Shown: positions 14,622 to 16,926 of the stretch, piece by piece
How positions within the stretch are numbered: the first letter of the stretch is position 1
How the letters are laid out: each line of letters opens with the position of its first letter
Source: Promethearchaeota archaeon
GTDB lineage: Archaea; Asgardarchaeota; Lokiarchaeia; Sigyniarchaeales; SOKP01
Assembly: GCA_030599585.1 (NCBI GenBank)
Contig: JAUVNS010000012.1
Location: 1 to 64,000, forward strand
Length of the DNA stretch: 64,000 nucleotides
Direction: 5' to 3'
Position numbers and translations under genes: made by a program
The notes under the pieces: generated by a model
Told to the model about the DNA's origin: nothing
Seen by the model: only the letters and a program-made list of their open reading frames with translations
The model's database searches: none

Positions 14622-15326
14622 ATGGATTCTTTAATATTCAACGAAGCTCTCATAAAGAGTAAACTTTTTGATTGTGATTCACCTTCACGCATTTCACTAA
14701 AAGACGATTTTTTTACGCGTTCGGCAGTGCTTTTTTCAATAATTCCTTACGAAAATAAACCCTACGACTTAATTCTCATTCATCGTTCGAATTTAGGAAC
14801 AAGACATAGGGGTGAAATGTCATTTCCTGGCGGGAAATTTGAAGAAGATAAGGACAAAACAATAAAAGATACCGCATTGCGAGAATCTGGAGAAGAAATT
14901 GGAGTTTCTAGGGAAAACATAAAGATTATTGGGTGTCTTGACGACTTTCCAACCATGACCAAGTATATTATAACACCTTTTGTGGCGGTTATTGATAAAA
15001 ATCAACAGCTAATAAGAGAAGAAAGAGAAGTCCAACGAATATTGAAAATTCCTATAGACTTTTTCACGAGTAAAACTCAATTTCGAGAACAAACTATTGA
15101 AGTAGATGGTAATAAGTTTCCCGTTTTTTATTTTAATTACTTTGATAAAGACAGCGGTCAAAAATATACCGTATGGGGGGCAACTGCTTACATGATTGTG
15201 ACTTTTATTGAAACTGTATACGGATTTACTCTCTCGAGCTTAGGTCTTAAGCGATTCAAGTTGGAAAAAATCAAAGATTTGAAAGAATACATAAAGTACA
15301 GGGACAAAATTACTAAAAAATTTTAA
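14622..15326 (+). CDS. Nudix hydrolase, CoA pyrophosphatase (NUDT7/8-like)
   Basis: HRGEMSFPGG..TALRESGEEIG; VWGATA. Confidence 0.88.
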   Translation: MDSLIFNEALIKSKLFDCDSPSRISLKDDFFTRSAVLFSIIPYENKPYDLILIHRSNLGTRHRGEMSFPGGKFEEDKDKTIKDTALRESGEEIGVSRENIKIIGCLDDFPTMTKYIITPFVAVIDKNQQLIREEREVQRILKIPIDFFTSKTQFREQTIEVDGNKFPVFYFNYFDKDSGQKYTVWGATAYMIVTFIETVYGFTLSSLGLKRFKLEKIKDLKEYIKYRDKITKKF

Positions 15327-15359: not shown

Positions 15360-16028
15360 ATGGAATTCATATTTAACGAAAAACTAATCAAAAAGAAATC
15401 AAAAGATTTTAAATCTCCTGATCGCCTTGCTATGTCGCACGAGTATTTTATTAATTCTGCTATTATATTTCTTATTATTCCTTACAAAAATAAACCATAC
15501 GATTTAGTTTTAATTCGAAGAACTAAAAGCACTACTGATAAGCATTCAGGTGAGATGTCGTTTCCAGGAGGAAAATTCGATCAAACATTAGACTCCTCTT
15601 ATCTAGATACAGCCTTAAGAGAACTAGACGAAGAACTTGGAATTCCCCAAAATAAGGTTAGTATCTTAGGTTGTATTGACGATCATCTTACACCTAAAGG
15701 TTTTGTTATAACTGCGTTTGTAGCTTTTATTAGCCCGGATACAAAAATGGCAAAGCAAGATAGTGAAGTAAAAGAAATTGTTAAAATCCCCATTACTTTT
15801 TTTGCGGATAAAAAAAATTTTAAAGAAAGAACGTATAAACTCAAAGACGAACTAATTGGCGTCGGTAAATATAACTATTTCTCTCCAGATAATAAAAAGT
15901 ATGTCATATTTGGAGCAACGTCTCATATAATTGTTAATTATATAGATACCGTCTACAATTTAGGTCTTATGACACCTGGCTGTCGTCGAATTAATTGTGA
16001 GGATATTAAAGACAGAATTATATCTTAG
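15360..16028 (+). CDS. Nudix hydrolase, CoA pyrophosphatase (tandem paralog)
   Basis: HSGEMSFPGG..TALRELDEELG; IFGATS. Confidence 0.88.
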   Translation: MEFIFNEKLIKKKSKDFKSPDRLAMSHEYFINSAIIFLIIPYKNKPYDLVLIRRTKSTTDKHSGEMSFPGGKFDQTLDSSYLDTALRELDEELGIPQNKVSILGCIDDHLTPKGFVITAFVAFISPDTKMAKQDSEVKEIVKIPITFFADKKNFKERTYKLKDELIGVGKYNYFSPDNKKYVIFGATSHIIVNYIDTVYNLGLMTPGCRRINCEDIKDRIIS

Positions 16029-16291
16029 CAATTGAAATCTTATTATTAAAACTTCACGACATTTAATCTTAGTCATCAAAACGTTAACACACATGTTTGG
16101 GTGTAACTTATTCAGATTTAGAAGATTCTAGGCTTGTAAGCAAGATTAAAATAGAATAAATAATTATTGATACATATTCAATACACACGATTACACAAAC
16201 ATTTATATATGAAAAAAATAATATATTAATTAGAAACAATAAAATTAAAATAAAAAATAAAACAAAAAAAAACAAATTGGAGGAAATAATT

Positions 16292-16378
16292 ATGACTTAT
16301 AACAAAAAAATTGAATTAAACGACATAAAATGTAAAGTATATTCCCAGGTTTTAACAAGTTCTTTTGTTAGCCACTAA
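16292..16378 (+). CDS. Micro-ORF A, 28 aa (MTYNKKIELNDIKCKVYSQVLTSSFVSH)
   Basis: GGAGG at 16279-16283, 8 nt before ATG; homologous to micro-ORF B; followed by T tracts. Confidence 0.6.
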   Translation: MTYNKKIELNDIKCKVYSQVLTSSFVSH

Positions 16379-16536
16379 ATTTTTAATAATTTTTTAATTT
16401 TTTATGATACACAACACAAAACACAAAAATAAAATTACGATAATAAAAATATAAAACAAACCTCACAAAAAAAATTCCAAATCTAAGAAAAAACACCACA
16501 AAAAAAAACCCAAAAAAAAATATGGAGGAAATGAAA

Positions 16537-16614
16537 ATGAATTATAATAAAAAATTGACAGTAGCAGACCTAAGAAATAAGATTGATTATCAACTTTCAA
16601 GAGTATATTATTAA
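16537..16614 (+). CDS. Micro-ORF B, 25 aa (MNYNKKLTVADLRNKIDYQLSRVYY)
   Basis: GGAGG at 16524-16528, 8 nt before ATG; homologous to micro-ORF A; followed by a long T tract. Confidence 0.6.
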   Translation: MNYNKKLTVADLRNKIDYQLSRVYY

Positions 16615-16775
16615 ACCTTTTTTTTTTCTATTTTTTTCTCCTGAACCACTCTTTGATTCCATCACTAATCTAAACCTAAAGACATTTTAATAGACAAAAA
16701 TCAGATAATTAAATAATATCGAAAAATTCAATTAAAATAACTAATAATATACCTTAAAGAAATATTAGAAAAATT

Positions 16776-16926
16776 GGCCCCCGGCGGTCGGGGTGGTCCC
16801 AGACGCTGGGCTTCAATACCTTTACAACAGCTATAGATGAAGAAACCCAGTTATCCTGCGAAGGGATAGGGGTTCGATAAGGAAAAAGGTATCCTTTTTC
16901 CAAGAAAATCCCCCTGGGGGCCGCCA
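16776..16926 (+). tRNA. selC: tRNA-Sec(UCA) with two introns (16817-16844 at 37/38; about 16879-16908 in the T loop)
   Basis: 9-bp acceptor GGCCCCCGG/CTGGGGGCC, 7-bp D stem with TGGT loop, 6-bp anticodon stem, TCA at 16813-16815, long variable arm, 4-bp T stem, G73 and encoded CCA; 24 nt upstream of SepSecS. Confidence 0.93.

Follow-up and report, generated by a model that had tools for sequence, protein, structure and literature searches.

The window analysed here, a 64,000-nucleotide (nt) stretch of contig JAUVNS010000012.1 from a Lokiarchaeial genome, contains a 747-nt gap between the stop codon of a NUDIX gene (16028) and the gene for the selenocysteine tRNA (tRNA-Sec, from 16776), and this gap houses two units of the same build. 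Each unit carries one very short open reading frame (ORF), referred to below as ORF-A (28 amino acids, aa) and ORF-B (25 aa). Comparison with related genomes and contigs shows that both ORFs are real, selected protein-coding genes equipped with strong expression signals, and we consider it highly probable that the two are paralogues, micro-protein genes that each form a full unit of transcription and translation, with products that act in trans and with the selenocysteine (Sec) locus serving as a landing site. The design that an earlier note had read from the letters of this DNA, namely a TATA element, an A-rich and G-poor leader, GGAGG, 8 nt, ATG, a short ORF, TAA and T-runs, is present in both units down to every element, and the TATA-like element and the two G-depleted stretches lie exactly where they had been placed (Table 1).

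First, we analyzed the conservation of ORF-A. Of the 41 other members of the genus, 13 contain one copy each that matches a hidden Markov model of the peptide, and homologues also lie on more than ten metagenome contigs. At all 15 species-level ORF-A loci, TTGGAGGAA is found 6–8 nt before the ATG and the frame closes with TAA; a TTTA[AT]ATA box stands 69–96 nt before the ATG at 15 of 15 loci, and runs of at least five T occur within ~20 nt of the stop at 14 of them. The ORF-A frame is free of stops in the 15 sequences, as against 18–61 stops in each of the other five frames, and the ratio of non-synonymous to synonymous proportions of difference (pN/pS) is 0.32, below the values of all 300 column shuffles. 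The sole indel inside the homologues is a 3-nt in-frame insertion of a whole codon, in genome G002. A second copy in the same genome, on contig C8, is 88% identical to the window copy over 312 nt, and the two ORFs differ by five synonymous changes, all of them third-position transitions, and by no non-synonymous change.

The distribution of ORF-A is narrow. A profile search of 400 Asgard genomes gave no credible match beyond the genus and its sister genus, and the degenerate core KCK[IV]YSQVLT, searched over 185,579 species genomes, was found in seven Promethearchaeota (Lokiarchaeia) assemblies and at two bacterial places, the latter taken as chance matches. In the sister genus the profile of the peptide matches an N-terminally extended form; these homologues (L120:737-853; also L028 of G075) are 35–38 aa long with the extension MAYEVKNESVWTDN...IDGIKCKIYSQALTHSFVSR, and the one on L120 sits just 5' of an Lrp/AsnC-like gene. 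ORF-A (87 nt, stop included) does not appear in the protein collection, nor do its homologues, except where they are lengthened by an upstream start. The common gene caller has a minimum of 90 nt, and it is their shortness that accounts for the two genes having been missed; ORF-B is in the collection solely in its 30-codon form, the one that gene callers give, from ATG 16522.

Second, we evaluated ORF-B, the homologues of which came from an exact look-up of its 30-aa form (read from the in-frame ATG at 16522) and then from the contigs behind the variants (JGI, ENA, Logan and NCBI assemblies). The 30-aa form has an exact entry in the public protein collection and nine variants of at least 90% identity, and a profile search of 1.84 billion representatives adds a more distant variant, P0016, bringing the number of variants to 11. 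The same search of representatives also returned P0011, a repeat protein of 882 aa in which the match covers 15 residues and recurs over and over; it was taken as spurious. No ORF-B homologue was found in species-representative genomes, the five closest of which lack the cassette or keep remnants of it, and a metagenome pattern scan for the ORF-B core returned 0 matches; ORF-B had seemed an orphan because the species-representative genomes omit the cassette-bearing lineages. The idea that the cassette is specific to its own genome, or that ORF-B is without orthologues, was overturned by the look-up of the 30-aa form and by the contigs to which it led.

Across nine unique ORF-B sequences, pS is 0.176 and pN is 0.047, which gives a pN/pS of 0.27; with codon 2 left out, seven unique sequences remain and the values are 0.176, 0.031 and 0.18. 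The corresponding values are 0.21, 0.066 and 0.32 for ORF-A at the Sec locus (11 unique sequences), and 0.19, 0.016 and 0.08 for the first 900 nt of SepSecS (three unique sequences). The synonymous divergence of ORF-B is thus about that of SepSecS on the same contigs (0.176 versus 0.19). On contigs L101–L103, ORF-B is intact and has its Shine-Dalgarno (SD) site, next to an ORF-A copy that lacks promoter and SD and carries a one-base insertion (frameshift). The substitution patterns of the two ORFs show that purifying selection at the amino-acid level maintains the reading frame of each.

The ATG at 16537 is invariant and the one at 16531 is ATA in some contigs; since the invariant ATG is combined with an SD spacing of 8 nt, a 25-aa product starting at 16537 is favoured for ORF-B, with the start at 16522 as the alternative. 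Codon 2 (16540-16542) is hypervariable, with N, R, K, Q, T or H at this position in otherwise nearly identical peptides (L101–L119); the cause may be selection that is relaxed or diversifying, or that the residue influences initiation or the processing of the N-terminus.

Third, the two peptides are related to each other. They align without gaps, as had been claimed, with 8 of 20 positions identical and 14 of 20 positive (BLASTP E 3e-5), and the full-length alignment needs a single three-residue gap. When the 18,775 ATG-initiated ORFs of 20–40 aa in the genome are ranked by their match to ORF-A, ORF-B comes directly after the two ORF-A copies (35, the next ORF reaching 32; z = 5.0). The view of the earlier note that these are members of an unannotated small-peptide gene family under protein-level selection is borne out by the homologue searches and the pN/pS values; the homologues of both ORFs have kept frame and SD.

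The leaders of the two units are ~55–60 nt long and ~65–75% A; they contain almost no G and are therefore unstructured. The 117 nt at 16407-16523 comprise 78 A, 22 C, 15 T and 2 G. Depletion of G is shared by relatives, with 0–3 G in 48 nt of the leaders homologous to that of unit A, and 1–5 G in 115 nt of the unit B spacer/leader in 11 other contigs. When the 566 GGAGG-N5-10-ATG sites of the genome are compared for the 120 nt that precede them, G is scarcest (3%) at the three units of the ORF-A/ORF-B family, and none of the 164 genes of at least 100 aa has five or fewer G in the 120 nt upstream of its SD-led start. Predicted folds of both mRNAs are weaker than those of dinucleotide shuffles (z +1.4 and +1.2), and no conserved RNA structure was found in unit A (alignment fold 0 kcal/mol, no covariation). 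The G-poor leaders suggest selection for an open ribosome-loading region, to which the A-rich or CA-rich translational enhancers of bacteria may offer an analogy, and leaders so extreme in their lack of G mark a candidate translation-enhancing leader type. Transcription of unit A likely starts near TAATTAGAAACAA, judging from the conserved block, and the T-runs after both ORFs would, as is general in archaea, terminate transcription.

The earlier note had further proposed that the trailer TTTTCTCC could gate translation by long-range pairing with the SD. The trailer itself is present, one base downstream of the place given for it, but the pairing is not conserved and is absent from the minimum-free-energy fold. 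The trailer belongs to older spacer sequence outside the cassette that is shared with genomes G145 and G138, where the letters are CTAC; they vary in other contigs (CTAC, TTCC and others) and read CTCC in the window only, and the pairing was rejected.

Table 1. Positions of the elements of the two micro-gene units and of the neighbouring tRNA gene in the window
Feature	Position	Strand	Remark
Tandem micro-gene cassette (unit A, spacer, unit B)	16104..16626	+	in the NUDIX/tRNA-Sec spacer
TATA box of unit A, TTTATATA	16202..16209	+	conserved in alignment A1
TAATTAGAAACAA block	~25 nt 3' of the unit A TATA box	+	conserved in alignment A1; likely initiator region
A-rich, G-free 5' leader of unit A	16234..16278	+	0 G in 45 nt
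Shine-Dalgarno GGAGG of ORF-A	16279..16283	+	inside invariant TTGGAGGAA; 8 nt to ATG 16292
ORF-A, 28 aa, MTYNKKIELNDIKCKVYSQVLTSSFVSH	16292..16378	+	TAA stop at 16376-16378
Putative oligo-T terminator region of unit A	16379..16405	+	runs T5, T6, T6
A/C-rich, G-poor spacer	16407..16523	+	unit B promoter region and leader; 2 G in 117 nt
TATA-like AAATATAAA of unit B	~90 nt before ATG	+	in spacer 16407..16523
ACGATAA and TTCCAAATCTAAG blocks of the unit B spacer	within 16407..16523	+	conserved
Shine-Dalgarno GGAGG of ORF-B	16524..16528	+	ATGGAGGA invariant across all contigs; 8 nt to ATG 16537
ORF-B, 25 aa, MNYNKKLTVADLRNKIDYQLSRVYY	16537..16614	+	TAA stop at 16612-16614
Putative T-rich terminator region after ORF-B	16615..16641	+	T10 and T7 runs conserved; older spacer sequence from ~16627
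Trailer TTTTCTCC	16634-16641	+	in older spacer sequence, beyond the cassette; not conserved
tRNA-Sec	16776..16922	+	Rfam RF01852, 35.9 bits; neighbour, outside the cassette

Outside the Sec locus, ORF-A has a second and wider home, which the earlier note had not picked up. At 12 of the 15 species-level loci it lies directly upstream of a bactofilin gene (PF04519, 232 aa) on the same strand, at a distance of 150–400 nt, and the bactofilin gene is followed by a gene for an acidic coiled-coil protein. The genome of the window carries such an ORF-A/bactofilin copy too, on contig C8, and among other genomes with a bactofilin orthologue at least 55% identical, 11 of 11 have ORF-A directly upstream. 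In the window, the sequence separating ORF-A from ORF-B is homologous, up to the SD and the start, to that which separates ORF-A from the bactofilin gene in relatives. The tree of the unit A copies does not resolve, and we assign the donor locus to neither the bactofilin nor the Sec home. More distant bactofilin orthologues, in genomes G017 (L062:1228-1490), G009 (L076) and G144 (L077), are preceded by unrelated-looking ORFs of 27–29 aa that have their own TATA, SD and T-tail (MENSYEYYQKSKARN..., MKREEIIENWNQYLDFRYEY..., MKITNGLEEYKNMRAKLD...), the first two of which are conserved between G009 and G017. In four genomes, G010 (L016:1711-1845), G138, G145 and G137, ORF-A and the bactofilin gene have a conserved 45-aa ORF (MNKEVKKMDIIKKADLNPRYFEEVKDLKRKCQSWQDY...) between them.

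On contigs L101–L119, the gene order at the Sec locus is NUDIX, sometimes two unknown genes, ORF-A, spacer, ORF-B, tRNA-Sec and SepSecS. The spacer between NUDIX and tRNA-Sec is an insertion/deletion hot spot (window 16028-16776; L101:1676-3250; L104:1252-3200; L033-L037): it measures ~95 nt in G002, G004 and G137, where the cassette is absent, ~260 nt in G145 and G138, where short remnants are found, ~750 nt with the cassette in the window, and ~1.3–1.75 kb on L101 and L104, where it includes two minus-strand genes of 125–153 aa without a Pfam family. Upstream of the cassette stand two tandem NUDIX paralogues (234 and 222 aa; 14622-15326 and 15360-16028), a pair that is kept in all related contigs. 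Alignment matches the remnants of G145 and G138 with the 5' edge of the cassette, the ORF-B SD and the 3' end of ORF-B. Lineages with and without the cassette are interspersed in the SepSecS tree, inside a single clade of ~90–94% identity, and on the simplest reading the cassette was present in the ancestor of this clade and was deleted several times.

Based on these observations, we propose the following explanation. Both units would be efficiently translated, as their signals suggest, into small, mildly basic, soluble cytoplasmic peptides. Most characterised prokaryotic proteins of such a size work by binding a larger protein, and for this reason the peptides would act in trans, most likely through a protein partner of that kind. 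Type A would first have appeared beside the bactofilin/coiled-coil gene pair, which as a best guess makes that pair the first candidate partner, and ORF-B would be a paralogue derived from type A by the loss of three residues. One copy of A and, with it, the paralogue B would then have settled in the variable spacer upstream of tRNA-Sec, in the ancestor of the clade defined by ~90–94% SepSecS identity, to be kept in some lineages and deleted in others, so that the position next to tRNA-Sec would be a landing site with no functional link. The association of type A with bactofilin gives a concrete candidate partner for an archaeal cytoskeletal protein.

A bolder version of this proposal, which we regard as unlikely in its present form, is that A and B are trans-acting binders that tune an Asgard cytoskeletal module of bactofilin and acidic coiled-coil protein, with the poly-A-like, G-free leaders as a dedicated high-output translation signal of Lokiarchaeia, or else that ORF-B, with an N-terminal half that resembles the first SAP/HeH helix, is a minimal nucleic-acid or chromatin binder.

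Several observations weigh against our proposal of two trans-acting micro-protein genes. (i) Transcription, translation and the start codons of both ORFs are read from sequence signals, and the pN/pS values of both come from short, related sequences. (ii) The stretch TATTCCCARGTTTTAACAA (16337-16355), inside ORF-A, is nearly invariant across the 15 homologues, synonymous sites included, and may be under an extra constraint at the RNA or DNA level; the one pairing predicted with the SD is an invariant 4-bp GGAG:YUCC without covariation. (iii) AlphaFold2 run with the family alignment predicts one helix (pLDDT, the predicted local distance difference test score, 83), for which an amphipathic reading finds no support in the hydrophobic moment of 0.03, and the modelled fold is uncertain. 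(iv) The bactofilin/coiled-coil pair is a guess as a partner for type A, a candidate only, and in G131 and G139 ORF-A is present without a bactofilin gene. (v) ORF-B adjoins tRNA-Sec on every contig seen, with which a local function is compatible.

On another reading, the ORFs are cis-acting leader peptides (upstream ORFs), in which translation or stalling controls the downstream gene, bactofilin at the wider home and tRNA-Sec/SepSecS or ORF-B here. The placement of ORF-A ahead of bactofilin at most species-level loci would fit, as would the unrelated short ORFs that occupy the same place in distant relatives, as if position mattered more than sequence. It is the amino-acid sequence, however, that is under purifying selection, and T-runs, which transcription may read through, directly follow each ORF, with a separate conserved promoter-like block before the next gene. 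Neither the individual folds nor the alignment fold reveals a conserved or stable switchable RNA structure, nothing translatable lies between ORF-B and the tRNA, and no bactofilin gene accompanies ORF-A in G131, G139 or the Sec locus. We therefore consider control in cis quite improbable.

A role in the selenocysteine system, either in tuning tRNA-Sec/SepSecS expression or in Sec decoding itself, is suggested by the position of ORF-B, which follows an ORF-A copy and lies ~160–190 nt upstream of tRNA-Sec on each of the ~19 contigs with enough flank. The link is nevertheless positional, because the cassette has been lost (G002, G004, G137) or reduced to remnants (G145, G138) in sister lineages in which tRNA-Sec and SepSecS persist; the earlier note had restricted itself to the same view. 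Presence across the genus points in the same direction, the tRNA-Sec/SepSecS probe matching 39 of 42 genomes and the peptide family being found in 14 of 42. In addition, tRNA-Sec has a conserved upstream block of its own, and the wider home of ORF-A is the bactofilin locus. A Sec function of the cassette is thus unlikely on comparative grounds, and as an explanation of the two genes we regard it as very improbable, which corrects a tempting association with selenocysteine decoding as unsupported.

The neighbouring tRNA-Sec gene scores below the gathering score of 47 for RF01852 and carries two insertions, one of 29 nt behind the anticodon and one of 31 nt within the T-loop. In the 64-kb window, ARAGORN reported no tRNA at all. 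The 31-nt insertion matches a 31-nt T-loop intron published for a lokiarchaeal tRNA-Sec (PMC4989117).

Exported signals or leaderless, bacteriocin-like toxins would also be small and mildly cationic products of stand-alone mini-genes, with a patchy presence among close relatives, as seen here. At both loci, however, a conserved neighbouring gene for a transporter, receptor, immunity or processing protein is missing: NUDIX, tRNA-Sec and SepSecS surround the genes at one, bactofilin and the coiled-coil protein adjoin ORF-A at the other, and the genes inserted on L101 and L104 belong to no Pfam family. The sequences of A and B contain no signal peptide and no hydrophobic or transmembrane segment, and their mean Eisenberg hydrophobicity is close to zero (-0.02 for A, -0.23 for B) with a low helical moment. 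Nor is there a detectable relation to other micro-peptide ORFs of the same genome (hhalign probability 1.6%). Secreted peptides of this kind are in our view highly improbable. That there are no genes at all, and that the open frames arose by chance in A-rich promoter or untranslated DNA or belong to a small non-coding RNA with a conserved nucleotide sequence, is strongly disfavoured and hardly credible: open frames of 25–28 codons are not rare in AT-rich DNA and part of ORF-A is invariant at synonymous sites too, but there is a single frame in which substitutions concentrate at synonymous sites, the indel preserves that frame, the SD and its spacing are invariant, RNA structure is absent, and ORF-B has diverged synonymously at the rate of SepSecS with its peptide nearly constant.

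Finally, we compared A and B with known systems. Like the leader-peptide attenuators and upstream ORFs exemplified by enterobacterial ilvL and leuL, they are short ORFs that precede a larger gene of the same strand; they differ in having no alternative RNA structures and no run of regulatory codons, in possessing a putative terminator of their own, and in being selected at the level of the peptide. From RRNPP-like cassettes and leaderless bacteriocins they are set apart by the missing conserved receptor, transporter or immunity neighbour, and from type I toxins and membrane micro-proteins by the missing hydrophobic transmembrane segment. Residues 5–15 of ORF-B (KKLTVADLRNK) weakly resemble the first helix of SAP/HeH (PF12949), and eight of the ten ORF-B variants of alignment A7 match that family with E ~0.1, at 12.5–13.1 bits against a cut-off of 28.9. 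The likeness concerns the N-terminal half of ORF-B and the first helix; the differences are that only 11 residues are matched, that a second helix is missing and that no ORF-A sequence matches.

The genome contains further SD-led ORFs of 23–32 aa (MSKTRVKEVKFTKNFNPENLVFRF and relatives) that have an A-rich leader and a T-rich tail, at C22:127393-127464(-), C22:129313-129384(-), C34:47716-47784(+) and C45:4873-4968(-). These share the gene design of A and B (A-rich leader, GGAGG, ATG, ~24 codons, T-rich tail) and differ in bearing no sequence relation to them; kinship was rejected on the hhalign value given above. Hidden micro-proteins may thus be a regular part of Lokiarchaeial gene content.

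With described small-protein families, A and B have no detectable relation, as judged by searches of Pfam, NCBIfam, PDB sequences and the ESM Atlas with the peptides, which gave nothing above threshold. The closest class is that of prokaryotic small proteins of up to 50 aa encoded by unannotated short ORFs, surveys of which have been published (PMC11247407; bioRxiv 10.1101/511675). A and B resemble the members of this class in being stand-alone genes of 25–28 codons with their own expression signals, overlooked on account of their length and maintained by purifying selection, and they differ in being archaeal (Lokiarchaeia), in being confined to part of one genus, and in having G-free leaders that are extreme for their genome. 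On this sequence evidence, A and B constitute a new, narrow micro-protein family within the known class of unannotated prokaryotic micro-proteins, and they provide it with two cleanly supported genes that combine full expression signals with measurable purifying selection.

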